Of a stretch of 64,000 nucleotides of DNA, positions 16,865 through 42,315 are shown in pieces (the stretch's first letter is position 1; every line of letters begins with the position of its first letter). The stretch lies in the NCBI GenBank assembly GCA_900321255.1, contig ONVK01000005.1:41-64040 (forward strand), read 5' to 3'. The stretch comes from an uncultured Lentisphaerota bacterium. GTDB lineage: Bacteria > Verrucomicrobiota > Kiritimatiellia > RFP12 > UBA1067. A program made the position numbers and the translations under genes. The notes beneath the pieces are model-generated. The model was not told the DNA's origin and did no database searches. It saw only the letters and a program-made list of their open reading frames with translations.

Positions 16865-19800
16865 GTCGGGCTCGGTTGCCGAGCCGCTTCCGCCGAGCCC
16901 CGTCAGCTTCAGCGCGCAGATGCGGCTAACGGTCGTTGCAGTCACCGTGAAGCCAAGAACAGTCTTGGTCGTAGTCGCGCCGCCGTCCGAGACGAGATAG
17001 ACGCCGTACGAGCCGTCGCTCAGCTGCGGACCGAGCGCGATTCCCTCGTACACGATCATGTTGTCTTTGTCCGTGCCATGGAAGTCGATCAGCGGCGACC
17101 CCTTCTCGACCGCGGTGAACTGCGCGTTAGTAAGCGCCGATACGCCGGAGACTTCCGTTGCCGCGGCAAGCGCACCTGTCGTGATGCGGTAGATGCGGCA
17201 GCGCCCCCAAGTCGCCGTGCTGACTTCGCGCTCGAGCGCGAGGAGCGATCCGTCGGGCAGCGCGCAGAGACCCGAGAGCCCGCTCTGCGCGGAGATCGTA
17301 TCTGCGCACGGATCGCATGCATACGCCCACTCTCCCGCCGCCGTCCATCCGTCCTGCGCCGTCGTGCGCGTAAAGCGTGTCAGGCGCACGACCGTGCTAA
17401 CCGTCGTATTTCCGCTTGACGATTCGCCGTCGCACGTGAGCGCCTGTTCGTTCGCGGTCCACATCGTGAGTCCATCAGGCGAGATCGTCAGGGACTCTAG
17501 CGACAGGTTGGAGCGCAGATGCTCGCGCTGGACTGCAGGGACGGGCGCGGTTCGTCCCGTAGCCGTTCCGTCAAGCGCAAACTCTGCAATCGACGGCGGC
17601 TCCCATTCGTCGCTGATCCACAGAGCGCCGGAGAGCGGATCGCGCGCAAGCCCCTCGGAGTTACGGCATCCCGCCGGCGTAACCGCCGCGCCGAGCGTCT
17701 GGCTCTCGATGGCGCCTGTCGCAGAATTGATGCCGATCGTCAGCGGATATATCTTCGCATATCCGTCGTTGTCGTCATGGTCCTGCAATACATAGAACAA
17801 TCCGCCCTCTCCGGAATACGTGATGCCGCCGCATCCGTTCGCGCCAAATGGATATTCCGCAATCTTCGCGAGATGCAGAGTGTTGGTGGTGTCCGGTCCT
17901 GGGACGATCGGCTCGACCGTCTCGCCGCCGCCCGATCCTCCGCCACCCGAACTCTCGCCAAGGTCGCGCACCTGCACGGCGGCGACGAATCGTCCGGCGC
18001 CGGATCCGCCCATCTTGAACGTGACGACGTGCGACGCGGCCTCTGCCGTAAACGAACCGTAGACCGTCGCGCCGGAGGATCCGTTCCCGTTCTGGATGCT
18101 GACGGACGGCAAATCACCGATCGTGATGTAGGCGTTGCCATACGAGTTGCGCGCCAGTATCTGCAGGAGATACGCGTGGCCCGCTGTCAATCCCGAAAGC
18201 GTCAAATGGATTTCTCCCATGCCGGTGTCCACGCCGAAGTTCCAGGCCGTGCCAAGGAGCGAGCTACTTCCCGCGTCCGCGCCCGCATTGACGAAGGCGG
18301 GACTGAATGAGATGTTCGCTGACGAAAGATCGGCCCCGGCCTGAAACGTAACATCACCCAAGGTGCGGTCGGTCGAAGCGCCGCGATAGGCATAGAGAAG
18401 CATGCCTTCGGTGCGGAGCATCGTTTCGTCAGACGCAGGCAATGTCGCAACGGTCCAGTCGACCATAGGCACGGGATCATCTCCTCCGCCCGACCCACCT
18501 CCGCTTGTCTGCTGCACGATCGGATAGTCGGCGGCGACGAACGTCTTGTTGCCTGCGAGCGTGAATACGACCGGGTTGCCGCTCACGATCTCGTAGCCCT
18601 CGGCTGCGGCAAAATTAACAGTTACCTGCGTATTCGAGACAATCGTGTAACTGCCCGCAACCGCCGCCACAGCGACGCCGTTCGTCGTAACGGAATCAAG
18701 GTCAAGCCCCGTCATTGCGGGAATCGTCAGCTCGCAGACCAGCGTCACAGGATCGGGATCGACAGGATCGTCGCCACCGCCGCCGCCCTCGCCAAGGTTT
18801 CGCACCTGTATGGCGTTGAGCACGCGGCGCCCACCAGAGCCGGAAAAAGCAATCTCGACGTTCGCAGTCGCGCCAGCGGCCTCGAACACGCCCGTGAATA
18901 TCGCACCGTACTTGGCGTCGTCGCCCTGCAGTCCGACCGGCCCCTTTCCGCCGATGGAGATATTCACTCCGGGCGACCAATTGTGGTGCGCCAGTATCTG
19001 GACCAAGTAGCGGTTCCCGGCCGTCAGCCCCTTGAGCGTCAGCGTTGCGCTGTTCTGGTTCTGGCTCCACACCCATGTGTTCGCGAGCATCTTCCCGAAG
19101 TCGCCCGAAGCGCCCTCAGAGCCCGAATTGCCGTCCGTTGCGTTGAACGCCGGCGAGATCGATGTGCCTGCGGTCTCGAGATCGGCGTCCGCCGCGAACT
19201 CGATTCCGTTGACCGTCACCGACGAGACGGCATAGGCGTAGAGGAGTGTCCCGTCCGTGCTGAAAAAGCTCCCGTTGGCCGTCGCGGCCGCGCCAGTCCA
19301 GCCGGTCTCGACGGGATCCCCGCCACTGCCGCCACCGCCGCCACCACTCGACGTAGCGATCGTGAAAGAGACCGACTTCGCCGCCGAGGTCTTGTTCTTG
19401 TCGGTAGTGATCGTGACGCCGCATGTGTATTCGCCGTCGGCGAGATTCTCAATGGAGAAGGTCGCCGTCGCGCCGGTCTGGTTCGAGAGCGCTGCGACGG
19501 GGGTCCCGCCATTTAGCGCATAGGAGACGGAATAGGAAGTGGCGTTAGTCCCGGCATCGTCCGTCCCCATCACGATGCCGGAGAGAAAAAGCGACACGCT
19601 GCTCCCGTTCGGAGTCGCGGAGACCGACCCGATCGACGGCTCGACGACCGTCGCCCCGCCTTCTCCGCCGCCACCCGATTCTCCGTCAGAAATCTCGCGG
19701 ACCTGAACGGCATTGAACGGCATCTTGCCGCTCCCGCCCTGATAGGTGATCGTCACGTCCTTCGTCGCGCCGACGGCCGTGAAGACGCCCGTGACGAGCG

Positions 19801-22800
19801 CGCCGTACTTTCCGCTCTCAGCATTGTCGCCGTGGATGTGCACGGGGTCACACCCGTTAGCGGAGACGATCGTCGTATTGTTAAAAAAGTTGTGCGCCAG
19901 GAACTGGACGAGGTACTTCTTCCCGCCTGCGAGATTCGAGAGCGTCAGCGTGACCGTGTGCGTGCCCGCACCGTCGCTGTCCCAGTACCAGCCGTTGCCG
20001 AGGGTGAGACCGAAGTTGCCGCCGACGCCTTCGTTCAAGAAGTCGCCGGTGAAGCCGTCAATGTTGGGCGTGAAGGAAATCTTCGGAGGATTATCCGAGG
20101 ACTGGAGGTTTATCGACCGCTCGAACGGGATGCCATTGATGGTCCCGCCGTTGCACACGTAGCCGTATACGAAGGTGCCCTCAGTGCTGAAGGAGTTTCC
20201 GGACGCGTCCATCAGTGTCGAAGTCCAGACGTCGGAGACGGCGGACGTGTTGACGTAGAAGACGACCGACTTCGTCTTCGTCCGGCCCTTGTCCGTCGTC
20301 ATCGTCACCTCGCAAGTGTGGTTGCCGTCCGCAAGGCCTTCAAGCGTGAACGAGCTGTCCGTCGTCTGGTCGGTTAGCGCCGTCGCGGCGGAGGATGCTC
20401 CGTCGAGCTTGTAGGTGACGGAATACTTTGTCGCTGGAACAGAATTGGCGTCCGTGCCCAAGACCACGCCAGCGAGCGAAATCGTCGCATTCGATCCGCT
20501 CGGCGCCGCGGTGAGCTCCGTGATGCGCGGATACTTCGGACGGTTGTTCATCGCGCGGTTCTGCGCGAACAGCCAAACGAACCGGTGGTTCGGCGCGCCC
20601 GCCGTGACGTCGTCCGTCCTTGAATAGCATGTCGTCCAGGCGTCGTGGCTGTTGTTCTCAAGCTTCTCGAAGATGACGTCCGACCCGAGCGCCCTGAGTG
20701 CCGTGACGATGCCCTCGGTCTGCTCGACGGGAATGGTCGGGTCGCCTCGGTTGTGGACGGCCAAGACAGGGACGTGCGCGATGTCGGCCGCACAGGCGGG
20801 ATCGCCGCCGCCGCAACACGGCATCGCCGCGGCGAAGAAGTCGGGACGGCGGCAGATCGCGTCCCATGTGCCATGCCCGCCCATGGAGAGCCCGGTGACG
20901 TAGATGCGGTTGGCGTCGACATCCGCCATCGCGGCGTAGGAGTCGAGAAGGTCGAACACCGCCTGGAGCGCCGAAGACGGCTTGTCCTGGAACGTGCACG
21001 TTGTCGAATTCATGGAGAACTCCGCCCACTTGACGTCGTTAGGACACTGCGGAACGAGAAGCCTGTAGCCGCTGGAAACGCCCGCACCGTCGAGATAGCT
21101 CTTGATGTTCGTCATCTCGTTGATCGTGAACGAATTGTCGACGCCGCACTGACCGTATCCGTGAAGGAACACGACGACGGGAACCTTGCCGCCGTTCGGA
21201 TCGGCCTTCGCCGCGACGCGGTAGGGGAGGTGAAGCTTGTTGGACGCGATGAATGTCTTCTTGACGAATTCGCCCGTCAGTTCTTCGCCGCCGCCACTTT
21301 CTCCGCCACCGGTCTCGCCACCACCACTTTCGCCGCCGCCACTTTCACCGCCGCCAGTCTCTCCGCCACCGCCTTCTCCTCCGCCCTCTCCGAGTTCGCG
21401 TAGCTGGATGGCCTTGACCTCGAACTTGCTGCTCGATCCGGAGAAGTTGACGACGACATTCTCCGTGGTGCCGGATGCCTCGAACACACGGGTGATAACG
21501 GCGCCGTACTTGTAGTCGTTGCTGTCGTTTGCGGTGACTGGGGCGATGTCGCCCGCAGAAACAGTTATGCCGCTGCTGTTGTGGTAGTGGCTCGCCACGA
21601 TCTGGACGAGATACTTGCGTCCGGACGTAAGCCCCTTGAGCTTGAATGTGACGTCCGTAGACGTTCCGGACATGTTCCACCACCAGAAGGCGTTGATGAT
21701 GTTGTTGTTGACGCCGAGGCCCCAGCCATCGCCGCCGGCCTTCGCAGGAGTTGTCTCGAGCGACGCATTCGAAGGATCGGAGCTCGACGCGAACGTCACC
21801 CCGCCGGCCGTGTCGCCGCCCTTCGCGATCGCGAAGACCTGCGTGCCGTCGCCGCGTATCGCGGAGCCGTCAGCTGTCATCGGCGCGACCTTCCAGCCGA
21901 CCGCGTCCGCCTGGGAATCCACCAGGAACTTTACGCGCTTCGGCGCGGAGACCATGCCATCGCCGGTCTTCACCATCACCGCGCAAGAGTGCCAGCCGTC
22001 GGCGAGATCCGCAAGCGAGAACGACGCCGTCGCGCCCGTCTGCGCCGTAAGCACCGTCGCCTCGGCGGCCGTGTCGAGCTTGGCGAGAACGGAGTAGGAC
22101 GACGCGGCGACACCGTTCGCGTCCGTGCCTTTCGTCACGCCGGAAATCGAGATCGTCGCCGACGTGCCGCTAACCTGCGCGGCAACGTCGCCAAGTGCGG
22201 GAAGCGTCACCGAAGAGGCGCCGGCCGCAGCCATGGCGGCGGAGATCGCAGGCGCCATGATCTCGCGGTAGCCCTTGGCCGAAAGGTGCAGGAACATGTC
22301 GGGATAGTCGCCGTCCTTCTCGAGGTACATCTCGCCCTTGAAGGTTCCGTCGGCGTTGAGGAACTGGCTGCGGACGTCGACGAGGATCACACGCTGTCCG
22401 TCCGCGTATGTCTTGATGATTTCGTTCGCCGTCTCGTTGTTGGCATACTGCGCCATGCCGGTCGCGTTATGCTGCGCGTTCGTGTAGCCGTAGGGGAGGA
22501 TCGGCATCAGGAGGACCTTCGACTCGGGATGCTTCGCGAGAACGAGATCCAGAACAGCCTTCACGCCCGCGGCGATGTCCGCGGGATCGTCCTTCGCCGG
22601 CTCGCGCTGGATGGTGTTGTTCGTGCCGATCAGGAGGTTGAAGAACTTCGTCGTGTAGCCGTCGAGGCATCCGCCCTCGAGACGCCACAGGAGGTTCTCG
22701 GTGAAATCGCCCGTGCGCCCGAGGTTGAACACCTTCGAGCCCAGTCCGTTCATGGAATCAGGATCGCTCGAGGACCACTTCTGCGTGATGGAGTCGCCGA

Positions 22801-23686
22801 GAAGGACGATATCGTAGCTCTTGCCGCCGATTGCGGACAAGTCGAACAGGTACTTCTCCCAGAAGAAGTTCTCCATCACCGCCTTGGACGACGGATAGGT
22901 TGCCGTCACCATATTCGCGGGACGCGCCGTCGCCACGAAGTCGGCGGGCATCGCGGCGCCGCTCGAAGCGGCGTCGACGTAGGGCGCGACCGCCTGCGCC
23001 CAGACTTCGTAACCGGACGCGTTAAGGGTGGCGTGATCGGCGTTGAAGAGCGAGGTCTTAAGCGTGTGGTGGTCCGACTCGAGGAAAAGGTCAGACATGT
23101 CGACCCACGTGCAGCCGTTCGCCTGGGCGTAGCGGCGGATTTCGTTGTTGACGAGGTCGTTGCGCGGACGCACGGGGTCGGACTCGTCGAGCCCGCGCGG
23201 CAGAATCGCCTGGACGACGATCTTGGCGGAGCTGTAGTTGGCCGCGAGGTAGTCGATTATGTCGCGGACCGCGCGGATGGTCTTGCCTGGCCCCTCCTCG
23301 GCCTTTGTGTAGATCGCGGAATTGTTGCCGCCGACCATGAGGAAGATCGCCTTGGGGCTTCCGATCTCGCCGTTCTGAATGCGCCAGAGGACGTTCTCGG
23401 TGCAGTCGCCGTCGAAGCCGAGGTTGAACATCGCCTTGTCGCCGGTGAAGTGCGACGCAAGCGCGGCCGCGCCTGTCGTCTCCCAGTCCTGCGTAAGTTC
23501 GTCACCGATGAAGACGATGTCCTTCTTTACGGAACTGTCCGCGAGCGCCGCGACCTTCTCGGCATGGCGTGCCGCCCACCAGTCGTCGACGCGAGAGACA
23601 GGCGTGTTCGCGCGGAAAGCCGCAAAGACATTCGACGCGACAAATGCGAGGCAAGAAGCAACGAGGAATTTAAGTGTTTTTGTCAT
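16616..23686 (-). CDS. Giant secreted mosaic protein A (2356 aa): 2x SGNH/PAF-AH-like esterase, 3 Ig-like modules, 4 malectin-like CBM modules, alpha/beta-hydrolase esterase, phytase-like beta-propeller, shared C-terminal domain
   Basis: Signal peptide MTKTLKFLVASCLAFVASNVFA; start 23686 chosen. SGNH domain 1 has GDELT (Ser replaced by Glu). SGNH domain 2 has an intact GDSIT...GTNN...HLSAKGY. The esterase has LHGYGQCG...GLSMGGHG. The phytase-like region has NSEGLARD...ISDEW...LESLTISPDG...LLALERE...YEGIALGP...LVSDGG. The protein ends GFYQIVVE. Confidence 0.85.
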   Translation of the reverse strand: MTKTLKFLVASCLAFVASNVFAAFRANTPVSRVDDWWAARHAEKVAALADSSVKKDIVFIGDELTQDWETTGAAALASHFTGDKAMFNLGFDGDCTENVLWRIQNGEIGSPKAIFLMVGGNNSAIYTKAEEGPGKTIRAVRDIIDYLAANYSSAKIVVQAILPRGLDESDPVRPRNDLVNNEIRRYAQANGCTWVDMSDLFLESDHHTLKTSLFNADHATLNASGYEVWAQAVAPYVDAASSGAAMPADFVATARPANMVTATYPSSKAVMENFFWEKYLFDLSAIGGKSYDIVLLGDSITQKWSSSDPDSMNGLGSKVFNLGRTGDFTENLLWRLEGGCLDGYTTKFFNLLIGTNNTIQREPAKDDPADIAAGVKAVLDLVLAKHPESKVLLMPILPYGYTNAQHNATGMAQYANNETANEIIKTYADGQRVILVDVRSQFLNADGTFKGEMYLEKDGDYPDMFLHLSAKGYREIMAPAISAAMAAAGASSVTLPALGDVAAQVSGTSATISISGVTKGTDANGVAASSYSVLAKLDTAAEATVLTAQTGATASFSLADLADGWHSCAVMVKTGDGMVSAPKRVKFLVDSQADAVGWKVAPMTADGSAIRGDGTQVFAIAKGGDTAGGVTFASSSDPSNASLETTPAKAGGDGWGLGVNNNIINAFWWWNMSGTSTDVTFKLKGLTSGRKYLVQIVASHYHNSSGITVSAGDIAPVTANDSNDYKYGAVITRVFEASGTTENVVVNFSGSSSKFEVKAIQLRELGEGGGEGGGGETGGGESGGGESGGGETGGGESGGGEELTGEFVKKTFIASNKLHLPYRVAAKADPNGGKVPVVVFLHGYGQCGVDNSFTINEMTNIKSYLDGAGVSSGYRLLVPQCPNDVKWAEFSMNSTTCTFQDKPSSALQAVFDLLDSYAAMADVDANRIYVTGLSMGGHGTWDAICRRPDFFAAAMPCCGGGDPACAADIAHVPVLAVHNRGDPTIPVEQTEGIVTALRALGSDVIFEKLENNSHDAWTTCYSRTDDVTAGAPNHRFVWLFAQNRAMNNRPKYPRITELTAAPSGSNATISLAGVVLGTDANSVPATKYSVTYKLDGASSAATALTDQTTDSSFTLEGLADGNHTCEVTMTTDKGRTKTKSVVFYVNTSAVSDVWTSTLMDASGNSFSTEGTFVYGYVCNGGTINGIPFERSINLQSSDNPPKISFTPNIDGFTGDFLNEGVGGNFGLTLGNGWYWDSDGAGTHTVTLTLSNLAGGKKYLVQFLAHNFFNNTTIVSANGCDPVHIHGDNAESGKYGALVTGVFTAVGATKDVTITYQGGSGKMPFNAVQVREISDGESGGGGEGGATVVEPSIGSVSATPNGSSVSLFLSGIVMGTDDAGTNATSYSVSYALNGGTPVAALSNQTGATATFSIENLADGEYTCGVTITTDKNKTSAAKSVSFTIATSSGGGGGGSGGDPVETGWTGAAATANGSFFSTDGTLLYAYAVSSVTVNGIEFAADADLETAGTSISPAFNATDGNSGSEGASGDFGKMLANTWVWSQNQNSATLTLKGLTAGNRYLVQILAHHNWSPGVNISIGGKGPVGLQGDDAKYGAIFTGVFEAAGATANVEIAFSGSGGRRVLNAIQVRNLGEGGGGGDDPVDPDPVTLVCELTIPAMTGLDLDSVTTNGVAVAAVAGSYTIVSNTQVTVNFAAAEGYEIVSGNPVVFTLAGNKTFVAADYPIVQQTSGGGSGGGDDPVPMVDWTVATLPASDETMLRTEGMLLYAYRGASTDRTLGDVTFQAGADLSSANISFSPAFVNAGADAGSSSLLGTAWNFGVDTGMGEIHLTLSGLTAGHAYLLQILARNSYGNAYITIGDLPSVSIQNGNGSSGATVYGSFTAEAASHVVTFKMGGSGAGRFVAAVQVRDLGESSGGGGSGGGETVEPIVPGPDTTNTLHLAKIAEYPFGANGCGGITYSGEGGLFYVLQDHDDNDGYAKIYPLTIGINSATGAIESQTLGAAVTPAGCRNSEGLARDPLSGALWISDEWEPPSIAEFALDGTATGRTAPVPAVQREHLRSNLSLESLTISPDGLTMWTANEQALTCDGESSSGNTTVSTVVRLTRFTRTTAQDGWTAAGEWAYACDPCADTISAQSGLSGLCALPDGSLLALEREVSTATWGRCRIYRITTGALAAATEVSGVSALTNAQFTAVEKGSPLIDFHGTDKDNMIVYEGIALGPQLSDGSYGVYLVSDGGATTTKTVLGFTVTATTVSRICALKLTGLGGSGSATEPDAPVIGGEGVEVPFAVSSDKVSITIGNAAAGHRYGYRKSVTLAGLKDAPVVYFENPASADGVLTLEIPKAENEPSGFYQIVVE
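17954..19305 (-). repeat. Dispersed cassette block in gene A: CBM 'X' - bridge - CBM 'Y' (read 5'->3' on the minus strand)
   Basis: Nucleotide-level similarity to 36160-37495 and, for the Y part, to 41733-42237. The same antisense shadow ORFs recur (e.g. ...RYAWPAVNPE.V.WISPMPVSTPKF.AVPRSELLPA...). Confidence 0.8.
21284..21388 (-). repeat. Seven tandem 15-bp units encoding a (G/S/T)GGGE linker
   Basis: The units are ttcgccgccgccact / ttctccgccaccggt / ctcgccaccaccact / ttcgccgccgccact / ttcaccgccgccagt / ctctccgccaccgcc / ttctcctccgccctc. They encode GEGGGEGGGGETGGGESGGGESGGGETGGGESGGGE. Confidence 0.9.
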
Positions 23687-23717
23687 GGCAGAAATCTCAG
23701 TTTGATTTTCTGCCTGT

Positions 23718-23762
23718 ATTGTACCTATTCTATCGTCCAAGCTCAATTACCCAGCTGGGTAT
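23718..23762 (-). promoter_or_regulatory. Operator + promoter of giant gene A
   Basis: The minus strand reads TATACCCAGCTGGGTAA-TTGAGC-17 nt-TACAAT. TACCCAGCTGGGTA (23748-23761) is a perfect 14-bp palindrome. Confidence 0.65.
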
Positions 23763-23788
23763 AAGGATCGAGCGACGTTGCGAGCTTG

Positions 23789-29099: not shown

Positions 29100-29104
29100 C
29101 CAAC

Positions 29105-32878: not shown

Positions 32879-35800
32879 GTCTGGCGCGGCGGCTTCGACA
32901 AAGACCGCCGTCCAGTCGTCCGTCGAATCCGCAAGCGGCGTCTCGTTGTCGAAGCGCGTCGCCTGGAGGGCGTAGCCGCCTTCGTCTGTCCGCTTATCGC
33001 AAAGCCCGAAGTGCAATTCGCCAATCTGGACGGTTGCGCCCGTCTTGTCGGCGATCTTCATGGCGATGCTTCCGTTCGTGATCTTTTCCCATCCGGCAGC
33101 CGCGTAGTCGGCCTGGTCGAGTCGGATGGACGCGAAGCCCGGAAGATCGACGTCTCCAAGGACGACCTTGCACTTGGGCGTGCCGCCCGCCTTCCCGCAG
33201 GACACCTCGACGCCTTCAAGATTCACGACGCCGGACGAGACGTTCGTGATGACGATGAACTCGCCCGAGTCGCCTTTACCATTGAGCGTCGAACCGTAAA
33301 TGGTGTGGAAACGGAGGTTGGCCTGGTCGGGATCGCCGCTGTCAGGCGCGGTCATCAGTACCTGGGTCGTGCCGTCGGCGGCGAAGACCTGCAATATGGC
33401 CGTGTCGGAGAAGGTCGCGTTGCCGACGATCACCTGGTCCGTAAGCGCATCCGCGTGCGTGGCGACATAGGCGCGGCGATCCGCGACGACGTAGATCGCG
33501 TCCTGCGCGTCGCAGACGGTGCCAGCGGGAAGCGTCCACTCGACGGCCGTCTTGAGCACCCATCCGCTCATGTCGACGACCTCGTTGTTCCCATTGGAGA
33601 TCACGACCACGCCGTCGGCGAGACCCGAGAGGTCGGCCGTAATGTTCGGAGCCAGCGTCTCAATCGGGCTCTGCGCCTCGGGGATGCCGGCGTTGAGACG
33701 CGAGCCGTAGCCGACCGTCTTCGCCGTGTTCGTCACGGAGTGCGTCACATAGAGGTGCTCGCGGCGCGGAACGACGTAGTTGTCCCAGATGTCCTGGATA
33801 CCGGCATCCATGCTGGCGGGACGGCTGGACGACGACCACACGTCGATGTTGCTGTCGGTGCCGTTGTTGGGCCACTTGGCCGCGTCGCTTGCGGCGTCAG
33901 CGCGCATCAGGCCAGCCATCTCGCGCATTTTCGCCATGAAGGGAACCTCGCTCTCTGGCGTACCCGGCTCCTTGAGCTCCTGGTCCATCAGCGTCCTGAG
34001 GCGGCGCAGGTAGAGGCGGCGGAACTTCGCGGACTGCCACACAGCCTCGAACCCGTCGTTGCCGTAGTTGATCGTAGTGGACATCGCTGACGACGAATAG
34101 CACCTGACGCGGCTGCCGCCGTAGAACGGGTGCGATTTGAACCAGTCGTTCGTCGCGAAAAGGCCGTTTCCGCCGACGCCGTTGTCGCGGTAATATTGGC
34201 CGAAGCTCAGGTTGAAGTCATAGCCGAGCGGCATCCACGTACCGGTGCCGCGCGCACCCTGGAGCATGTCGGGGTTGTCGTAGTACGCGCAGACGTTGGC
34301 CCACACGTCGTCCATCTCCTGGGTGATGCGCGCGGAGGCGAGGTAGTTGAGCCACGCCGGGAGGTCGAACTTCTCGACGACGAACTTAGTGAGCGCGGCG
34401 TTATCGAGCCCCGTGGACCCTCCGTCCGGCGAACTGGACACCTGCTGCGCCGCAGTTATCTTGGAGCGTAGCTCGTTCTGTAGGACTGTGATGTTCGACT
34501 CGTCCTCGTCGTCAGGAGTCTTCTTCTCGATGCCACCCGCCGTCGTTCCCGATCCGCTCCTCAGCGTGCCGACGTTCTTGTATCCGTAGCCGAACTTGTC
34601 GAGACCGTAGACATCCTCGATAAGCTCGTCGGTGAAGCGCTCGGAGTTGAACGCGAGCTGGTAGAACTCGCCGTTCAGGTTGCAGCGGACGGGGAAGTCG
34701 AAGGGAACGAGGTTCCCCATCTTGCGCCACAGCCAGAAAGCGATCATCTGGCGCATGTAGCTCGGGTCGGCGAACTCGCTGATGAGCGAGGTCTTGCGGA
34801 TCTCCTCGACCGCCTCGCCCGTCACGGCGTCGGTCATCGTCATGGGATGCGACTTGGCGAACCTGAGGCCGTGGCCCTTCTTCGTGAAGCCAGCGGACGT
34901 GTTGCCGCGAAGGTCGATCCGCACGTAGTCGTAGTAGTTGGAGGTCGACGAATCGTAGATGGCGACGCGCGCGTTGTGGGGAACGAGCGAAAGATTCTGC
35001 TTGTCGGCGTCGACGTCCATCTGCATCAGGTGGTTGCCGCTCGCAAACATGTGCCACGTCGGGAGCGTCGCGCTGTTGAGTTCGCCCGGTTCGACGATCG
35101 TGCCGTACCACTCGTAGCCGTCGTCCTTGTTGTTGAAGCTCGGGGAAGTCCACTCCACGCCCTCGCCGTCGGTGATCAGGACCTTCCACTGCATCAGGTG
35201 TCCTGCCGCGGGGAAGTAGCTAGAAGGAATCGTCGCCGTGTACTGGTCGCCCCAGTTGGCGTCCGTCGTCTTCGTGGCAAGGTTCACTTCGTTCGTGACG
35301 AGAGTCGCGTCGTCGAGGTCCTTGCGGTAGACGAACTTGATGGACTGGATCTGGTCCGCCGCACGCGGCGTGAACGTTCCATCGGGGTTCATCACGCCGT
35401 TTATCGGGAGCGTCACCGAATAGTCCTCGCCTGGAACGGCGGGCGGCACGGGGGCCGCAAATTCGCTTGCATATGTCGTCTTTGCCTGTCCCGGCTTCTC
35501 GTAGAGCGGACCGACGTTCGGGCCGATGCGGACGAGTCCAGCAGTCGAGGTGTTCGCCGTGCCGCGCGTAGGCGTCGGGCACATCCAGCGGCGAGTGCCC
35601 TCGCCATCCGCGGCGTCTCCGACGATGATCGACCACCCTTCCGGCAAGTCGCTCGGGATGACGACCGTGTCGACGACGCTTACGATGTTGCTGGCATTGC
35701 TGACCGGCGCGTAGTAGAGGCGCACGTAAGGCGACTTCTTCGGGTTCACCTTGTCGCCCCACACGAGGATGTCGCCGTAGTTCTCGAAAATCATCGGCTT

Positions 35801-38800
35801 GCCGTCGAACGTTCCTTCCGCAAACGCGCTCACCGTCTTGTCCTTGCTGTTGGAATAGCGCTCGGACGTGTAGAAGATCGCGCGACCGTGAGGCGGGACA
35901 AGGCGCGACGGGAAGTTGCCGTAGCCCGCGGGATCGGTCTTCTTGCCGCGGTTCACGCGGATGAAGCGGTAGTCGGCGAGATCGGCCCACTTGTCGGACG
36001 TGTTCTCGACTTCGACCCAGCCAGACTCGAGTCCGTTGACGTCCATCCCTTCCATGCCGTTCAGCGTCCGCGCGTCCGTGGGCTTGGGCAGTATCTCGCT
36101 GATCCTGAGGACGCACCCCTCCGCCATATTGCCCTCGGGATCGACATAGGGCGACTCCCCTTCAAGCTCGCGCACCTGCACGGCGTTGAGCGCGCGCCAA
36201 GCGGCCGCGCCCGAATATTTTATGACAACACTCTCGGAGTTGGCAATCGCCTCGAAAACATAGACAAGCGAGGCGCCATACTTGTTGTCATTGCGCATGG
36301 CCATCGCTTCGAGATCGCCGGCGCTTATCAGCGCATCGCTCCACTGGTTGTGCGCGAAGAACTGCGCGAGATAGCGCTTCCCGATCGTCAAGCCCTTAAG
36401 CGTTACCGTCAGCGTGCTCGTCGAGTTGGCCCACTCCCACGAGTTATTCAGCATCGTGCCGAAATCGCCTGCGACACCCTCGCTGCCCGAGTTGCCGTCC
36501 GTCTGCGCCAGATCCGGCTGCACGGTCGTATCGGCCGTGTTGAGGTCGGCATCCGCGGCGAAGGCAATTCCGTTGACCGTCACCGACTGGACGGCGTAGG
36601 CGTAGAGAAGCTTGCCGTCCGTGCTGAAAAAGCTCCCGTTGGCCGTCGCAGCCGCGCCGGTCCAGCCCGCATCGACGGAACCGCCGCCACCACCGCCACT
36701 CGTCGTCTGCACGGTCGGATAGTCGGCGTCGACGAACGTCTTGTTGCCCGAGAGGGTGAATACGACCGGATTGCCGCCCGTGATTTCGTAACCCGAGGCC
36801 GGGGCAAACGTCACCGTCACCTGCGTGTTCGAGACGATAGAGTAGTTTCCGCCGACCGCCGTCACCGCGACGCCGTTTGTCGTCACCGACTGGAGCTGAA
36901 GCCCCGTCTTCTCTGGAATCGTCAGCATGCACACAGGCGTCGTCGGGTCGACAGGATCGATCGGATCTTCGCCACCACCGCCGCCGCCCTCGCCGAGGTC
37001 GCGGACCTGGAGGGCGGCGACGTAGCGCGCGGCGCCGGATCCGCCCATCTTGAACGTGACTACTTGCGACGACGCTTCCGCCGTGAACGAACCGTACACC
37101 GTCGCGCCGGACGAGCCGTTCCCGTTCTGGGTGTTGACGGCGGGCAGGTCGCCGATCGTGATGTAGGCGTTTCCATACGAGTTGCGGGCCAGGATCTGCA
37201 AAAGATACGCATGGCCGGCCGTCAATCCCGAAAGAGTCAGATGGATCTCGCCCATGCCTGTGTCCACGCCGAAGTTCCACGCCGTGCCAAGGAGCGAACT
37301 GCTACCGGCATTCGCGTCCGCATTGACGAAGGCCGGATCGAAAGAGATGCTCGCGGAAGACAGGTCGGCGCCCGCCTGGAACGTCACGCCGCCCAGGGTC
37401 CGGTCCGTCGAGGCCCCGCGATAGGCATAGAGAAGCGTTCCGGCCGTCTGGAGCATCGTTTCGTCCGACGCGCTCAGCGTTTCGACGGTCCAGCCCTCCG
37501 CGACGATTTCGCCGCCGCCGCCCGACGTGCTGACGACGAACGAGGCGGTCTTCGTGGCCGTCTTGCCCTTGTCGGTCGTGATCGTGACTTCGCAGGTGTA
37601 GGAACCGTCGGCGAGATCGGCGATCTGGAACGAAGCCGAAGTACCGGTCTGGTTCGAGAGCGCCGCCACCGCGGCCCCGCCGTTCAAAGTGTAGGATACC
37701 GCATAGGATGTCGCGGCAACGCCTTCGTCGTCCGTGCCCAGTTTGACGCCGGAAACCGAGACCGTCGCGTTCGAGCCGCTGACGCTGGAATCCGCCGACG
37801 TAATCGACGGCGCGATGACGATCACTCCGCCGCCTTCGCCGAGGTTTCGCACCTGGACGGCGTTGACCGGGCGATCGCCGTTCGAGCCGGAAAAGAGAAG
37901 CTCGACATCCTGCGTCTCGTCCGAAGCCGTGAAGATACCGGTCAAGAGAGCACCGTACTTTCCGCCCGCCTCGTCAGAGCCGTGGACGTGCTGCGCTTCG
38001 CAGCCATTGGCAGAGACAAGCATGCTGTTGCTCCAGGCCGTGTGCGAGAGGATCTGGACAAGATACCGCTCACCCGGCGTCAGGTTCTTCAGCGTCAGCG
38101 TCACTGTCTTGGTGTCCGTCGAGGAATCGGTCCACGTCCAGCCATTCCCGAGGATTAGTCCGTAACCTGTATCTGAAACACCTTCGTTCATGAGGCTGCC
38201 GTCAAAGCCGGTAGGCGCCGGCGTGAAGGCGATGCTATGTGTGGATGCGAGTGGAAGCGCCCGCGTGAACGCGACGCCGTTGACGGTCTGCCCCTGCGTC
38301 GCATAGGCGTAGACGAGCGTGCCCTCCGTGCTGAACTTCGCGCCGGCGGCGTCCATCGGTTCGGACGTCCAGCCGACCGGCATCGGCGGCGGCTCGCCAA
38401 TCCTGAAGTTGACGGACTTCGCCGCGGACGTCTTGTTCTTGTCGGTCGTTATCGTCACCGCGCAGGAATAGACCCCGTCGGCGAGATCGGCGATGTCGAA
38501 CGAAGCAGTCGAAGCGCTTTGGCCCTCGAGCGCAGCCACGTCAGACGCATTGGTCAGGGAGTAGAAAACCGAATAAGAGGTCGCCGCAACGCCTCCGTTG
38601 TCGGTTCCCATCTCTATGCCCGAAAGCGAGATCGTCGCCGTCGTGCCGTTCGTCGAGACGGAAACCGACCCGATCGACGGCGCAATGACCGGCGCCGGCG
38701 GCTCGCCGATCCGGAAGGAGACGGACTTCGCCGCGGATGTCTTGTTCTTGTCGGTCGTAATCGTCACCGCGCAGGTGTATTCGCCGTACGCGAGACCGGA

Positions 38801-40681
38801 GATCGTGAACTGCGCGGACGCACCGGTCTGGCCCGAAAGCGCAGCCACGGACGCCGCGTTGTTGAGCGAGTAGGAGACGGAATAGGAATTTGCGCTCTCA
38901 CCGGCATCGTCCGTCCCCAGCACGATGCCCGAGAGAAAAACCGTCGCCGCCGTTTCGTTCGTCGTGGCGGTGACCGAGCCAACCTTCGGCTGGACGACGA
39001 TCGGCACGCCGCTCGCGCCGAGGTCGCGCACCTGGATGGCGTTGATGCCGTAGTTTCCGTCGGACGTGATGGTGAACGTCTTTGTTGCCTCGGTCGCCGT
39101 GAGGGCACCTGTAAGAACACCGCCGCAGGACCAGCCGTCGCCGTAGACCTTGATGAAATTCGGATCCCAGTACGACTCCTTGATCCAGACATGGGCCTTG
39201 CTGTCGCTGTTGTAGTTGCGGTAGCCGAATATCTGGACGAGATAGACGTGACCAGGCGTGAGGTTCTTGAGTGTCACCGTCTTGTCGCCCTGATTCGCCC
39301 ACCAGCAACGGTTCAGGAGGTCATAGTAAGAGCCAGAGATGCTGCTCGGAGCCGACGCGCCGGAGGTCTGGCTGTACGGCCAGGAAATGTCGCCCGAGAT
39401 GTTCGCGTTGTTGTTTCCGGCAGCTGCGAACGCAACGCCGTTGACCGTGCAGGCCGAGGGGGCATACGCATACTTGAGCGTGCCGTCCGTGCGGATGGCG
39501 CTGTCGTCGGTTGGAAGCGGGCTCGCGTACCACGGCTCGGTCATCTTGAAGTCGAGCAGAGTCACGAGCTCCTTGTTGTCGGCCGTCGTGACGGTCACCT
39601 TGCAGGTATGGTCGCCAAGGGCGACGTTCGGGATCACAAACGAAGCCCGGGTGCCCGTCTGGCCGGAAAGCGCGCGCGTCTTCGCCCCGCCGTCGAGCTC
39701 GTAGTCGATCGAATAGGTCGTCACGGCGTTCGCGTTCGCGTCCCTTCCGAGGGAAATGCCGAAGACCGTGATCGTCGCAGAGCCCGCGCCGTCCGCGTTC
39801 GGGGCGGCCTTGGCGTAGCCGATGGAAGGATCCGCCGTCTGCGGCTGTCCGGCGGGAACCGCGAGATACTTGTGCATCGCGTTCGAGATGGCGGGACGCC
39901 AGAAATCGGAATAGGTGAAGAACTCCGGATGGAGGCAGAGTCCCACGGCATCGTATCCGCCGTGGCCGCCCTCGCGGTAGCATGTCTTGTCGGGCATCGA
40001 ATTCTGCTGGAGATACTGGCTGCGGAGGTCCACCCAGAACACGCGCTTGTTGTCGACGAACTGGAGGATGTAGTCGTTGACCGCTTCGCTCATCTCCGTC
40101 ACTTCGGCCGCCTCGAAGTACTTGCTATCGAAGCTGTAGGGGAGAATCGGCATCAGGAGGATCTTCGCGTTCGGATGTTTCGTCGCCATCTCACACAGCA
40201 TGAGACGGATCGACTCGGCGACATCCTCTGCGCGATCGGCATGCTCGTTGTGGTCGATGCACTTCTGGTGGCCGTTGTTGATGCCGACCATCAACGTGAA
40301 GTACTTCGTGGTATAGCCGTCAAGCGCACCGTTCCGAAGACGCCACAGGAGGTTCTGGACGCGATCGCTGCCGATGCCCATGTTGAACGCCGCGGCGTAG
40401 TTGATGGGATTCCCGTCGAGGGCCAGACTCGGGTTGTTCCAGAAATCGGTGATGGAGTCGCCGAACAGGACCACGTCGAAGTCCTTGCCCTGGCTGCCGC
40501 TGATGTCAGCGCTGAAGTGGTTCCTGTGGTAGTCGTCCGTGCGCTCCTTCGGCGTACACGGCTCAGAACTGTGATCAGATCCCGGCACCTGGGTGCCGAT
40601 CACGATCGGATCGCCGAACGCAACGAGCGAAGCGGCGGCGAGGACTGATGCTGCGACTTTTTTCAATGTGTTTGTTTTCAT
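32630..40681 (-). CDS. Giant secreted mosaic protein B (2683 aa): SGNH esterase, 4 Ig-like modules, 4 malectin-like CBM modules, LTD-CotH-LTD-LTD block, shared C-terminal domain
   Basis: Signal peptide MKTNTLKKVAASVLAAASLVAFG. The SGNH domain has an intact GDSITDFW...GINN. The first lamin-tail-like domain is CVLRISEILPKP...WVEVENTS (around 36115-35750). The CotH-like core is FTKKGHGLRF...LISEFADPSYMRQ...NGEFYQLAFNSERF...YGYKNVG (around 35080-33800). Two further LTD-like segments lie around 33660-33100. The protein ends CFYQIVVE. Confidence 0.85.
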   Translation of the reverse strand: MKTNTLKKVAASVLAAASLVAFGDPIVIGTQVPGSDHSSEPCTPKERTDDYHRNHFSADISGSQGKDFDVVLFGDSITDFWNNPSLALDGNPINYAAAFNMGIGSDRVQNLLWRLRNGALDGYTTKYFTLMVGINNGHQKCIDHNEHADRAEDVAESIRLMLCEMATKHPNAKILLMPILPYSFDSKYFEAAEVTEMSEAVNDYILQFVDNKRVFWVDLRSQYLQQNSMPDKTCYREGGHGGYDAVGLCLHPEFFTYSDFWRPAISNAMHKYLAVPAGQPQTADPSIGYAKAAPNADGAGSATITVFGISLGRDANANAVTTYSIDYELDGGAKTRALSGQTGTRASFVIPNVALGDHTCKVTVTTADNKELVTLLDFKMTEPWYASPLPTDDSAIRTDGTLKYAYAPSACTVNGVAFAAAGNNNANISGDISWPYSQTSGASAPSSISGSYYDLLNRCWWANQGDKTVTLKNLTPGHVYLVQIFGYRNYNSDSKAHVWIKESYWDPNFIKVYGDGWSCGGVLTGALTATEATKTFTITSDGNYGINAIQVRDLGASGVPIVVQPKVGSVTATTNETAATVFLSGIVLGTDDAGESANSYSVSYSLNNAASVAALSGQTGASAQFTISGLAYGEYTCAVTITTDKNKTSAAKSVSFRIGEPPAPVIAPSIGSVSVSTNGTTATISLSGIEMGTDNGGVAATSYSVFYSLTNASDVAALEGQSASTASFDIADLADGVYSCAVTITTDKNKTSAAKSVNFRIGEPPPMPVGWTSEPMDAAGAKFSTEGTLVYAYATQGQTVNGVAFTRALPLASTHSIAFTPAPTGFDGSLMNEGVSDTGYGLILGNGWTWTDSSTDTKTVTLTLKNLTPGERYLVQILSHTAWSNSMLVSANGCEAQHVHGSDEAGGKYGALLTGIFTASDETQDVELLFSGSNGDRPVNAVQVRNLGEGGGVIVIAPSITSADSSVSGSNATVSVSGVKLGTDDEGVAATSYAVSYTLNGGAAVAALSNQTGTSASFQIADLADGSYTCEVTITTDKGKTATKTASFVVSTSGGGGEIVAEGWTVETLSASDETMLQTAGTLLYAYRGASTDRTLGGVTFQAGADLSSASISFDPAFVNADANAGSSSLLGTAWNFGVDTGMGEIHLTLSGLTAGHAYLLQILARNSYGNAYITIGDLPAVNTQNGNGSSGATVYGSFTAEASSQVVTFKMGGSGAARYVAALQVRDLGEGGGGGGEDPIDPVDPTTPVCMLTIPEKTGLQLQSVTTNGVAVTAVGGNYSIVSNTQVTVTFAPASGYEITGGNPVVFTLSGNKTFVDADYPTVQTTSGGGGGGSVDAGWTGAAATANGSFFSTDGKLLYAYAVQSVTVNGIAFAADADLNTADTTVQPDLAQTDGNSGSEGVAGDFGTMLNNSWEWANSTSTLTVTLKGLTIGKRYLAQFFAHNQWSDALISAGDLEAMAMRNDNKYGASLVYVFEAIANSESVVIKYSGAAAWRALNAVQVRELEGESPYVDPEGNMAEGCVLRISEILPKPTDARTLNGMEGMDVNGLESGWVEVENTSDKWADLADYRFIRVNRGKKTDPAGYGNFPSRLVPPHGRAIFYTSERYSNSKDKTVSAFAEGTFDGKPMIFENYGDILVWGDKVNPKKSPYVRLYYAPVSNASNIVSVVDTVVIPSDLPEGWSIIVGDAADGEGTRRWMCPTPTRGTANTSTAGLVRIGPNVGPLYEKPGQAKTTYASEFAAPVPPAVPGEDYSVTLPINGVMNPDGTFTPRAADQIQSIKFVYRKDLDDATLVTNEVNLATKTTDANWGDQYTATIPSSYFPAAGHLMQWKVLITDGEGVEWTSPSFNNKDDGYEWYGTIVEPGELNSATLPTWHMFASGNHLMQMDVDADKQNLSLVPHNARVAIYDSSTSNYYDYVRIDLRGNTSAGFTKKGHGLRFAKSHPMTMTDAVTGEAVEEIRKTSLISEFADPSYMRQMIAFWLWRKMGNLVPFDFPVRCNLNGEFYQLAFNSERFTDELIEDVYGLDKFGYGYKNVGTLRSGSGTTAGGIEKKTPDDEDESNITVLQNELRSKITAAQQVSSSPDGGSTGLDNAALTKFVVEKFDLPAWLNYLASARITQEMDDVWANVCAYYDNPDMLQGARGTGTWMPLGYDFNLSFGQYYRDNGVGGNGLFATNDWFKSHPFYGGSRVRCYSSSAMSTTINYGNDGFEAVWQSAKFRRLYLRRLRTLMDQELKEPGTPESEVPFMAKMREMAGLMRADAASDAAKWPNNGTDSNIDVWSSSSRPASMDAGIQDIWDNYVVPRREHLYVTHSVTNTAKTVGYGSRLNAGIPEAQSPIETLAPNITADLSGLADGVVVISNGNNEVVDMSGWVLKTAVEWTLPAGTVCDAQDAIYVVADRRAYVATHADALTDQVIVGNATFSDTAILQVFAADGTTQVLMTAPDSGDPDQANLRFHTIYGSTLNGKGDSGEFIVITNVSSGVVNLEGVEVSCGKAGGTPKCKVVLGDVDLPGFASIRLDQADYAAAGWEKITNGSIAMKIADKTGATVQIGELHFGLCDKRTDEGGYALQATRFDNETPLADSTDDWTAVFVEAAAPDAPVIGGEGVASPIVVGSDKVSITISNAASGHTYGYRKSTTLAGLKDATVVYFANPAAADGILTLEIPKAANEPSCFYQIVVE
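36160..37495 (-). repeat. Dispersed cassette block in gene B: CBM 'Y' - bridge - CBM 'X' (order permuted relative to gene A)
   Basis: Y (36989-37495) matches A 17954-18460. The bridge (around 36700-36985) matches A around 18490-18780. X (36160-36668) matches A 18788-19305. Confidence 0.8.
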
Positions 40682-40815: not shown

Positions 40816-42315
40816 TTACTTGCAGATAAAATAGAACCCACGCGAAGACACTGGCCCATCCGCCGGCAGCTCCCGCACCTGGATGGCGTTGATCGGGCGA
40901 TACCCGGTCGCGTTGCCCGAGTATGTTACCGCGACATCCTCCGTCGCGTCCGTGGCAGAGAAGGTACCGACGATGGACGCGCCATACTGATACGTCGTAT
41001 CGCTGCCGTTGGGACCGATATGCTGAGGCGGCGTCCCGTTTACGGAAATCATCATGCCGGCCTCTTCAGACCGCGAGCTGAAGGAAACGATCTGGACTAG
41101 ATAGTTATGCCCGCTGACCAGATTCTTGAGCCGAAGCGTCATCGTCGTTTCCGAAACGGAGGAAGACCAGTAGAGTGCACGTTTAAGCAGCCAGCCGTAG
41201 TTCGTCCAATCAACGTGCCCCATTCCTTCGATATGCCCCGAAAAAGAGGGGGTCACACTGATGTTCTCGGCCAAAGCATCGCTACTGGCGCCGCGGCGGA
41301 ACGAAACGTCGTGAACGGGTTGGTTTTGGTCGAGGGTCGCGTAGGCGTAGACAAGCGTCCCGTTCGTGAGGATCGAAGTCTCGTCCGGTCCCATCGGCGA
41401 AACGGTCCACGGCGCGACAGGCGCTTCACCGACACGGAAAACAAGATTTGTCGACGCGGTCTTGCCTGCATCTGTCTCAACCGTGACCGCGCACGTGTAT
41501 TCGCCGTCGGCGAGGTTCGCGATATTGAACGAGGCCGTCGCGCCGGTTTGGTCGTTGAGCGCAACGACCGCCGGCGCGTTGGTCAGCGAATAGGAGACGT
41601 CGTATGACGTCGCGGCCGCGCCCTGCGCATCCGTCCCCAGCACGATCCCGCCCAGCGAGACAGTCGCCGTGGCTTCTGTCACCGAAACGGATGCCGATTC
41701 GATCGACGGATCGACAACCGATGGTGCCGCCGCTCCGAGGTCGCGGACCTGGACGGCGGCGACATAGCGCGCGGCACCCGATCCGCCCATCTTGAACACG
41801 ACATCGTGCGAAGATCCGACCGCCTGGATGGTGCCGTAGACCGTTGCGCCGGACGATCCGTTTCCGCTTTGGATGTTGACGCGCGGCAGATCGCCGATCG
41901 TGATGTATGGATTGCCCCATGCGTTGCGGGCCAGAATCTGGACGAGATACTCATGGCCGCTCGTAAGCCCCGAGAGCGTCAACCGGATTTCGGCCATGCT
42001 TTGCGAAGCGCCGAAATTCCACGCCGTACCGAGAAGCGAGCTGCCGCCGGCGTTCGCGTTCGCTTCCGTGAAGGCCGGATCGAAGGCTATGTTCGCCCCC
42101 GAGAGGTCGGCACCGGCCTGAAACGTCACGTCGCCGAGAGTCATTGCCGACGATGCGCCGCGATAGGCGTAGAGAGGCGTCCCGGCCGTCTGGAGCATGG
42201 TTGCGTCAGATGCTGGCAATGTTTCGACTGTCCATGTGCCGTCCGTCGCGGCGGGCGCGGATGCGGCGAAGAAAGCCACGATGGCAGCAAAGGCAATGGA
42301 GAAAGGCATTTTCAT
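40816..42315 (-). CDS. Secreted CBM-Ig-CBM protein C (499 aa) made only of the cassette types found in giants A and B
   Basis: Signal peptide MKMPFSIAFAAIVAFFAASAPAA with AAGGAG SD. It has a Y-type malectin-like module, one Ig-like module (..LGTDAQGAAATSYDVSYSL..LADGEYTCAVTVETDAGKT) and a second CBM ending INAIQVRELP. No enzymatic domain and no FYQIVVE tail are present. Confidence 0.8.
   Translation of the reverse strand: MKMPFSIAFAAIVAFFAASAPAATDGTWTVETLPASDATMLQTAGTPLYAYRGASSAMTLGDVTFQAGADLSGANIAFDPAFTEANANAGGSSLLGTAWNFGASQSMAEIRLTLSGLTSGHEYLVQILARNAWGNPYITIGDLPRVNIQSGNGSSGATVYGTIQAVGSSHDVVFKMGGSGAARYVAAVQVRDLGAAAPSVVDPSIESASVSVTEATATVSLGGIVLGTDAQGAAATSYDVSYSLTNAPAVVALNDQTGATASFNIANLADGEYTCAVTVETDAGKTASTNLVFRVGEAPVAPWTVSPMGPDETSILTNGTLVYAYATLDQNQPVHDVSFRRGASSDALAENISVTPSFSGHIEGMGHVDWTNYGWLLKRALYWSSSVSETTMTLRLKNLVSGHNYLVQIVSFSSRSEEAGMMISVNGTPPQHIGPNGSDTTYQYGASIVGTFSATDATEDVAVTYSGNATGYRPINAIQVRELPADGPVSSRGFYFICK
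41733..42237 (-). repeat. Y-type cassette copy in gene C
   Basis: Similar at nucleotide and protein level to 17954-18460 and 36989-37495 (WTVETLPASD.TMLQTAGT.LYAYRGAS...LLGTAWNFG...GSSGATVYG...VAAVQVRDLG). Confidence 0.8.

Follow-up and report, generated by a model that had tools for sequence, protein, structure and literature searches.

How did two giant genes of one locus come to carry the same modules in opposite order? The question is raised by a 64,000-nucleotide (nt) stretch of DNA from an uncultured Lentisphaerota bacterium (assembly GCA_900321255.1, contig ONVK01000005.1, positions 41 to 64,040), hereafter the window, in which three minus-strand genes, A, B and C, share a set of repeated modules. 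In gene A, a module of type X is followed by a domain referred to as the bridge and by a module of type Y; in gene B the order is Y, bridge, X; and gene C carries a third Y. A preliminary description of the window, made without database searches, took this arrangement for ongoing recombination or gene conversion among paralogous cassettes, allowing rapid diversification of binding specificity or surface epitopes.

On the evidence presented here, A, B and C, genes of an uncultured rumen Kiritimatiellae bacterium, probably encode secreted multi-domain proteins of the esterase type that have been reshuffled by homologous recombination at module borders, and the copies now found in the window are probably old. 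Observed directly are the module map, the mosaic ancestry of the genes, the allelic replacement of cassettes in a sister species, and the age and invariance of the copies in the window's own species. No description of genes A, B and C or of their modules was found in the literature.

Results

Permuted modules in genes A, B and C

Gene A (16616-23746), gene B (32630-40681) and gene C (40816-42315) lie on the minus strand, within a run of minus-strand genes spanning 16.6 to 47.2 kb of the window, and each starts with a typical signal peptide, as seen in the translations. Modules were segmented by hand and then confirmed with hidden Markov models (HMMs) built from the segmented modules, giving domain E-values of 1e-59 to 1e-72; a repeat finder independently recovered the same module pairs as direct repeats. 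Gene A contains X (X_A, 18791-19306), a bridge (18506-18760), which is an all-beta domain of ~85 amino acids (aa), and Y (Y_A, 17957-18463), and gene B contains Y (Y_B, 36992-37498), a bridge (36701-36958, assigned by HMM) and X (X_B, 36161-36670), all on the minus strand and listed in reading order; the third Y (Y_C, 41734-42240, minus) lies in gene C. X and Y are types of a ~170-aa module, here called M, of which there are ten copies (four in A, four in B, two in C), accompanied by eight immunoglobulin (Ig)-like modules of ~97 aa (three in A, four in B, one in C). One bridge and one ~87-aa C-terminal domain are present in each of A and B. The coordinates and permuted order of these modules, the third Y in C, the counts of eight Ig-like and ten M-type modules, and the Gly-rich linkers between them had all been described correctly beforehand.

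Cassette-swapped alleles in a sister species

Replacement of whole cassettes was observed at a single locus in a sister species, which is 79-89% identical to the window at the nucleotide level. Three of its proteins, P0155, P0157 and P0173, share their N-terminal ~600 aa at 100% identity and end in Ig-X, bridge-X or Ig-p, where p is a further M type. Their genes share one locus (beta-lactamase, beta-helix, gene, ulvan-lyase-like), which is syntenic with the B locus, and the allele architectures at this position are b2-Ig-X, b2-bridge-X and b2-Ig-p (b2 being the preceding M type). The contigs carrying the alleles (L014/L015, L016/L017 and L018) derive from different samples and assemblers, and two of the three alleles were each assembled twice independently. 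Whereas the flanks are ~100% identical at the nucleotide level for more than 2.5 kb upstream and more than 1.5 kb downstream, the cassette region is 42-66% identical where Ig is compared with bridge and 44-62% where X is compared with p. The alleles switch at the end of ...NAVQVRNLGEGGG, in the linker before GWTGGAADAE, and at NAIQVRELP....

Five of five B-type groups, defined by an N-terminal GDSL-Ig-b1 part at least 97% identical and by at least two members, hold differing cassette sets. Together with the mosaic ancestry and the census below, these alleles show that cassettes are shuffled by recombination in this family, and recently so in members other than A, B and C.

Mosaic ancestry of genes A and B

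The related loci L001-L004 come from Kiritimatiellae metagenome-assembled genomes (MAGs) of rumen and goat gut, and every named homologue belongs to the Kiritimatiellae. In gene A, the 5' part (24082-19666) matches L003 at 94% identity and L001 at 78%, and the 3' part (18819-16620) matches L001 at 89% and L003 at 80%. In 150-nt bins, the closest relative switches module by module in both A and B. Maximum chi-square values, calculated on sites at which just one of two relatives shares the window's base, were 535 at ~19673 (the border between a2 and Ig3), 123 at ~18652, inside the bridge, and 55 at ~38999 (the border between b1 and Ig2), each of them reached in 0/2000 permutations. Identity to a further relative, L019, stays at ~95% through the first 1.8 kb of B and drops to ~70% at the Ig2/Ig3 border (~38700).

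The two bridges of the window have different affinities. Bridge_A groups with the bridges located before Y in the A-type genes of L001, L002 and L003, and bridge_B with the ones located before X in B-type genes (L001 4592, L002 4401); bridge-Y in A and bridge-X in B are therefore the resident pairs. An X-like module would so have been added before bridge-Y in A, and an Ig4-Y unit before bridge-X in B. Among about 60 relatives in the census described below, the X/bridge and Y/bridge junctions were seen in the window's species only.

Combinatorial architectures among relatives

About 60 relatives were typed by M cluster, the clustering being based on 164 M modules of the close family, out of 495. 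The spacer between given M types can be either Ig or bridge, as in b2-Ig-X and b2-bridge-X, b2-Ig-p and b2-bridge-p, or a2-Ig-Y and a2-bridge-Y, and the distal M may be of type X, p, Y or q. The a2-Ig3-X-bridge-Y of the window corresponds, in A-type relatives, to a2-bridge-Y or a2-bridge-p-bridge-Y. P0182, a partial, CotH-bearing relative of B, has q-bridge-X in place of the window's Y-bridge-X; its X, which is 93% identical in aa to X_B, likewise precedes the lamin-tail (LTD)/CotH region. An alternating array, M-bridge-M-bridge-M, is present in L001 and L003. Judging from this census, the bridge and the Ig module seem to serve as interchangeable spacers.

The likely C orthologue P0195 has the same signal peptide and tail (...GPVSSRGLFFICK) as gene C, with q-bridge-p instead of Y-Ig-c2. 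Even the type of gene C, which had been called cassette-only, therefore has replaced cassettes.

Age of the copies in A, B and C

A nucleotide similarity of 80-90% had been estimated by eye for the shared modules. This holds for Y_A and Y_B, which are 83% identical in nt and about 88-89% in aa, and for no other pair: the identities are 73% (nt) and 74% (aa) for Y_A and Y_C, 77% and 76% for Y_B and Y_C, 77% and 76% for the two bridges, and 65% and 60% for X_A and X_B. In the last pair, identity in sliding windows starts at 94, 90, 85 and 83% within the first ~200 nt and then drops into the range of 45-70% that any two M modules show. The N-terminal 70 aa of X_A are 80% identical to X_B, the last 57 aa find their best match in modules of the b2/a2 type and not in X, and X_A as a whole is 56-61% identical to all other X modules; X_A is, by this measure, either a hybrid or an X module that has diverged very far. 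In the first ~200 nt it is closer to X_B (~88%) than to the X of L001 (71-76%), which would fit one old partial conversion or chimeric duplication in this lineage.

Synonymous sites (Nei-Gojobori) point to a considerable age, the proportion of synonymous differences (pS) between the copies, at 0.31-0.55, being near saturation. For Y_A and Y_B pS is 0.48 and the corresponding divergence (dS) ~0.75, the nonsynonymous proportion (pN) is 0.06, and the ratio of nonsynonymous to synonymous divergence (dN/dS) is 0.09; pS is 0.46 for the bridges and 0.52-0.66 for unlike M modules. Since a pS of 0.48 approaches that of unlike modules, Y_A and Y_B are near synonymous saturation, and their nucleotide similarity is due mostly to protein conservation and codon bias. 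Windows of 30 codons contained no tract of very low synonymous divergence, the lowest pS being 0.31 at the X N-terminus (0.31-0.43 along that tract), with 0.33-0.72 in Y and 0.34-0.57 in the bridge. The dN/dS of 0.09-0.23 for Y indicates purifying, not diversifying, selection on point substitutions. The antisense shadow open reading frames (ORFs) that recur with the modules are regarded as by-products of the high G+C content of the window (~62%).

Relationships beyond the window agree with this. Y_B is ~90% identical in nt (82-96% per 150-nt bin) to the Y of L004 (11204-11710), as against 83% to Y_A, and Ig4 plus Y of gene B match L004 (10886-11727) at 86% as a single 845-nt unit; Y_A is ~86% identical to its positional counterpart in L001. 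In trees, read together with the pairwise identities, the three Ys of the window do not group, and Y_C, 74-76% identical in aa to Y_A and Y_B, is the outgroup to both. On these sequence data, the copies in A, B and C are old paralogues kept similar by purifying selection, without present homogenisation. The idea of recombination among paralogous cassettes is thus borne out in so far as it concerns mosaic ancestry and cassette shuffling in the family. Ongoing gene conversion among A, B and C is not supported, given the near-saturated synonymous sites, the greater closeness of Y_B to L004 than to Y_A, and the invariant assemblies described next.

Invariant structure in the window's own species

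The same species is represented by nine further contigs, L005 and L006-L013, from about ten samples and several assemblers; all are consensus assemblies, in which minority variants are invisible. L005 corresponds to window 8608-24236 at 99.8% identity in a single alignment, which includes all of gene A with a2-Ig3-X-bridge-Y, and L006-L013, from eight further sample accessions, are collinear with the B-C region at 99.8% identity or more. The 2683-aa product of B is identical on 6 contigs and the product of C on 19. With all differences listed, five single-nucleotide polymorphisms (SNPs) lie inside modules and none of them forms a conversion-like cluster; L005 has three indels in gene A, one of them within the bridge at 18633. 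No variant of cassette order was found among these nine consensus contigs. As independent contigs are collinear at 99.8% or more with no change of cassette order, the structure of the window is not an assembly chimera, an origin that the preliminary description had kept in mind.

The only length polymorphism seen in the species is a 21-bp in-frame deletion in the lamin-tail region of B (window 35759-35781) in L009, where the product has 2676 aa. Patches of divergence occur in the flanking genes, with 9 SNPs within ~330 nt in L007 (window 26627-26960), and the flanks of L014, L016 and L018 show patches of 80-95% identity against a background of ~100% between these sister-species contigs. In these genomes at large, exchange with diverged relatives by homologous recombination therefore seems to be common.

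Conserved junctions and a proposed mechanism

The NA(I/V)QVRxL end of M is the most conserved nucleotide stretch among unlike M modules, with 72% mean identity versus 37-64% elsewhere and exact matches reaching 14-20 nt. After it come GGC-rich Gly linkers, among them the GGGE(S/T) linker of gene A (21283-21385, minus), itself encoded by a 15/45-nt tandem repeat. A 90% identical relative, P0179, has one extra unit of this repeat, so that the length of the linker is also variable. The breakpoints at ~19673, ~38999 and ~38700 and the allele switches fall at module borders or conserved junctions, and one breakpoint (~18652) falls inside the bridge.

We propose that the permuted X-bridge-Y and Y-bridge-X orders were produced by homologous recombination with crossovers in short sequences that are conserved at all module borders, namely the GWT with which M starts, the NA(V/I)QVRxLG with which it ends, and the Gly linkers rich in GGC. 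Whole cassettes would in this way be replaced, inserted or deleted in frame, the partners being paralogues or DNA of related strains, and the conserved junctions, together with longer homology in shared neighbouring modules, would be where recombination resolves. Because the residues of a given module type are under purifying selection, diversity comes from the choice of modules and not from hypermutation. Swapped M types could retarget the attached esterases to other plant or host glycans, as the fold of M and the gene neighbourhood suggest, and a diversification of binding specificity or surface epitopes, as first envisaged, is plausible from the sequence.

A bolder version of this scheme, which we regard as unlikely, would make the junctions built-in recombination sites at which strains and paralogues of rumen Kiritimatiellae swap modules and spacers at high frequency. 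M and the bridge would then be undescribed families in a combinatorial, strain-specific set of glycan-targeting esterases, kept diverse by frequency-dependent selection through substrate niches, phage or host antibody.

Nature of the M module, the bridge and the C-terminal domain

No model in Pfam or NCBIfam covers M; only an fn3-like motif of ~25 residues (LxLxGLxxGxxYLVQ) scores, and a profile search of the PDB with M returned matches to this motif alone. The malectin identity suggested for M was rejected, as the profiles PF11721 and PF12819 gave no match to any of the three proteins, or to a Y taken alone, even at E <= 10. An AlphaFold2 model of Y, calculated from an alignment of the ten window copies, has a predicted local distance difference test score (pLDDT) of 86.9 and forms an all-beta jelly roll. 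Comparison of the M model with the PDB by Foldseek gave weak matches (E ~1e-3 to 1e-2, template modelling (TM) scores of 0.35-0.46) to carbohydrate-binding modules (CBMs) of families CBM35 and CBM6, the CBM35 of Ape1 O-acetylesterase, and the receptor-binding domains of binary toxins. Those with E of 6e-3 to 1e-2 and a probability of 0.97-0.99 comprise CBM35 (2w47, 2w3j, 2w1w), CBM6 (2y8k), MiXBM and a porphyran-binding CBM, and malectin is absent from the top 50 fold matches. M resembles malectin/CBM57 and CBM6/CBM35 in its ~170-aa size and predicted all-beta jelly roll, and differs from them in having no sequence-level match to any and TM scores of only 0.35-0.46. In place of the malectin-like label, the fold prediction points to a CBM6/35-like jelly roll, and M may be a CBM-like glycan binder.

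Among 1.8 billion representatives of clusters at 50% identity, 433 matched an M profile at E <= 1e-10, some of the matches covering only the fn3-like motif; at least one full-length M module is present in 133 of the best 150 matches. The relatives include the giant proteins P0001 (5227 aa) with 17 M modules and P0007 (4429 aa) with 10, in which Ig and bridge spacers lie between the M modules; the family thus extends to arrays much larger than those of the window.

The bridge has a mean column identity of 86% across eight copies from four genomes. Its model, made from the two copies in the window (pLDDT 91.3), is a seven-strand beta sandwich with no significant match in the PDB (best E 0.1). 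An InlB B-repeat identity was not adopted, the match being sub-threshold (E 0.065).

The ~87-aa C-terminal domain ending ...CFYQIVVE occurs on the minus strand at 16619-16879 in A and at 32633-32893 in B, the latter 80% identical in aa to that of A and 97-99% identical in nt to L002. It is also present, at 11536-11760, in a beta-helix (pectate-lyase-like) protein encoded by the ORF 11533-13296 (minus). The domain has no match in Pfam or NCBIfam, and in relatives it is replaced by a different tail of ~110 aa ending ...HHFYRAILTR. It may be a sorting or anchoring signal.

Remaining modules and gene neighbourhood

The ORF of gene A encodes 2376 aa from a TTG; the likely start is the ATG at 23686, giving a product of 2356 aa, as called in the independent contig L006. 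Its order is signal peptide, GDSL, GDSL, Ig, M (a1), Gly linker, esterase, Ig, M (a2), Ig3, X, bridge, Y, phytase-like domain and C-terminal domain. The second GDSL/SGNH esterase domain (22259-22810, aa 313-496; PF13472, E 6e-32) is preceded by the first copy. It is followed by the first Ig-like module (21917-22213), the a1 module (21389-21901) and, beyond the linker, an alpha/beta-hydrolase esterase domain (20630-21205; Abhydrolase_2/DLH, with a weak match to esterases of the PHB-depolymerase type). Next come the second Ig-like module (20249-20530), a2 (19688-20233), just after which the breakpoint at ~19673 lies, and Ig3 (19355-19645), which ends in TITTDKNKTSAAKSVSF and has its closest relative at L004 10577-10870 (84-87% nt). 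The phytase-like (esterase-like) domain is at 16985-17836 (PF13449, E 1.5e-40).

Gene B consists of signal peptide, GDSL, Ig, M (b1), Ig, Ig, M (b2), Ig4, Y, bridge, X, LTD/CotH/LTD and C-terminal domain. Its modules are Ig 1 (39542-39835), b1 (39017-39538, with the breakpoint at ~38999 just after), Ig2 (38708-38998, motif TITTDKNKTSAAKSVSF), Ig3 (38399-38689, motif TITTDKNKTSAAKSVNF), which forms a 309-nt tandem pair with Ig2, b2 (37841-38377) and Ig4 (37526-37822). The CotH kinase-like domain (33860-34918; PF08757, E 1.4e-18) is flanked by lamin-tail domains (PF00932). The Ig modules ending TITTDKNKTSAAKSV(S/N)F are indeed common to A (19355-19645) and B (38708-38998 and 38399-38689), as had been noticed at the outset: Ig3 of A is 70% (aa) and 75% (nt) identical to the first of the two in B, and 61% and 67% identical to the second. 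Gene C (499 aa) consists of signal peptide, Y, Ig (41425-41718), M (c2, 40867-41415) and a short tail; c2 has no close relative within the sampled relatives. All these features are on the minus strand, the Ig-like modules and the a1 and b2 modules having been assigned by hand segmentation and HMM, with the type census for a1, b2 and c2.

The neighbouring genes include an alpha-galactosidase with NPCBM, beta-helix/pectate-lyase-like proteins and a melibiase/ulvan-lyase-like protein. The gene at 29105-32539 (minus) has a melibiase-like part and ulvan-lyase N and C domains, according to precomputed Pfam matches of an identical product; its orthologue in the sister species has 626 aa and consists of the lyase part alone, which looks like another fusion or fission difference. 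The 1663-aa ORF at 43912-48903 (minus) is over-extended, the real gene being 43912-47217 (1101 aa, starting MKPQIAFALF), which is conserved in relatives and has no Pfam match.

Discussion

Reshuffling at module borders has to be weighed against other histories that would bring about the same permuted order. If the history were purely vertical, with ancient tandem duplications and independent losses and no recombination between lineages or paralogues, the module types would be old and conserved across genomes, as they are, and different deletions from an M-bridge-M-bridge-M array such as those in L001 and L003 could yield either order. We nevertheless consider such a history improbable, since gene A has opposite identity gradients (L003 closest at the 5' end, L001 at the 3' end; 0/2000 permutations), since flanks of ~100% identity around non-homologous cassettes (Ig versus bridge, X versus p) are impossible by loss alone, and since bridge_A and bridge_B belong to different orthologous groups. 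The view that A, B and C are now exchanging sequence by intragenomic gene conversion, and are thereby kept 80-90% alike in concerted evolution, could appeal to X_A, whose ~200-nt tract of 83-94% identity to X_B ends abruptly and is closer to X_B than to the X of L001. The breakpoint inside X_A does exist, and it indicates an old, not a current, event: even there pS is 0.31-0.43, with 0.48 for Y and 0.46 for the bridge. With Y_B closer to L004 than to Y_A, the Ys of the window ungrouped in the tree, and one structure with five SNPs and no conversion-like cluster in about ten samples, current conversion is distinctly improbable.

Programmed variation of the pilE/pilS, vlsE or shufflon kind would need silent donor cassettes and a dedicated recombinase or reverse transcriptase. 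Conserved junction motifs do surround the variable cassettes, and the small gene C adjoins B as a cassette-only gene might; C, however, is an intact ORF with its own start codon and signal peptide, identical in 19 contigs, and all cassettes lie within long intact ORFs. A scan of the neighbours, which was not exhaustive, and the annotations of related contigs revealed no recombinase, invertase or reverse transcriptase, and the consensus contigs hold no within-species variants, which leaves a programmed system very improbable. An artefact, in which a short-read assembler jumped between repeated modules, is hardly credible in spite of the repeats themselves and the three indels of L005 in gene A, one of them in the bridge: L005 and L006-L013 reproduce the structure at 99.8% or more, the B product is identical on 6 contigs, and repeats 65-83% identical are too diverged to confuse de Bruijn assembly over whole modules.

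Several points weigh against reshuffling by recombination as set out here, or against parts of it. All relatives are short-read metagenome contigs, and assembly chimeras may account for some of the mosaic signals. L003 is the clearest case: its first ~2.4 kb (1-2700, versus window 24082-21350) are 99-100% identical to the window, and the rest is 70-90% identical. Either the 5' part of A was transferred very recently, or the MAG contig may be a chimera, assembled from samples in which the window species was present as well. The alleles are the stronger evidence in this respect, two of them having been recovered twice in independent assemblies. No donor sequence was identified for any swap, and recombination at the conserved junctions is deduced from the positions of the breakpoints. 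Activity of the process in the window's own lineage lacks support, there being no cassette polymorphism in the consensus assemblies of that species. In aa, Y_A and Y_B are about as close to each other (89%) as to the Ys of other genomes (88-90%); as these margins are small, the case against concerted evolution is carried mainly by nucleotide identity and synonymous divergence. Glycan binding by M, finally, is suggested only by a weak fold resemblance (TM 0.35-0.46).

The locus offers a clean sequence-level example of how new architectures arise in modular glycan-active proteins of an uncultured, abundant rumen lineage, with whole-domain exchange at conserved junctions and with alleles that set otherwise identical strains apart. 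It also draws attention to M and the bridge as domain families for which the copies of Pfam and NCBIfam searched have no model, M being present in at least several hundred protein clusters. It is also a warning that, for such proteins, gene-level calls of orthology and function in MAG catalogues can fail at the level of modules.

Among known systems, modular carbohydrate-active enzymes are multi-domain esterases and glycosidases, cellulosomal or not, with CBMs, Ig/FN3-like spacers and Gly/Pro/Thr-rich linkers, and domain shuffling drives the evolution of their architectures. They are similar in several respects: the proteins are secreted and have several esterase-type catalytic domains, repeated beta-sandwich non-catalytic modules and flexible linkers, their gene neighbourhood is glycan-degrading, and the same modules are reordered in paralogues and relatives. 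They differ in that M and the bridge have no Pfam or NCBIfam match and weak (M) or no (bridge) neighbours in the PDB, and in that the swaps are documented here as alleles of one locus between near-identical flanks.

Genes for mosaic surface proteins, such as pneumococcal PspA/PspC, streptococcal M-like proteins and the receptor-binding modules of phage tail fibres, are formed by recombination at junctions. Like the present family, they keep their 5' and 3' ends and exchange cassettes within the gene or towards its distal end, with breakpoints in short junction sequences that are conserved, and with phylogenetic incongruence along the gene. Here, in contrast, the cassettes are whole folded domains on enzymes, under purifying selection (dN/dS of Y 0.09-0.23), and selection by immunity or phage is not in evidence. 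Neisseria pilE/pilS, Borrelia vlsE and concerted tandem paralogues are alike in having repeated cassettes in neighbouring genes, and one abrupt tract of high identity is found here as well, at the N-terminus of X; unlike these systems, the present genes have no silent cassettes, high synonymous divergence between copies and no within-species variation in the consensus contigs. The A/B/C family is an instance of the known phenomenon of mosaic modular genes and, with no recombinase or reverse transcriptase among the neighbours examined, not of a programmed system such as pilE/pilS, vlsE, shufflons or diversity-generating retroelements (DGRs); what is new is the lineage, a pair of domain families for which Pfam and NCBIfam have no model, and the documentation of the swaps at the level of alleles.

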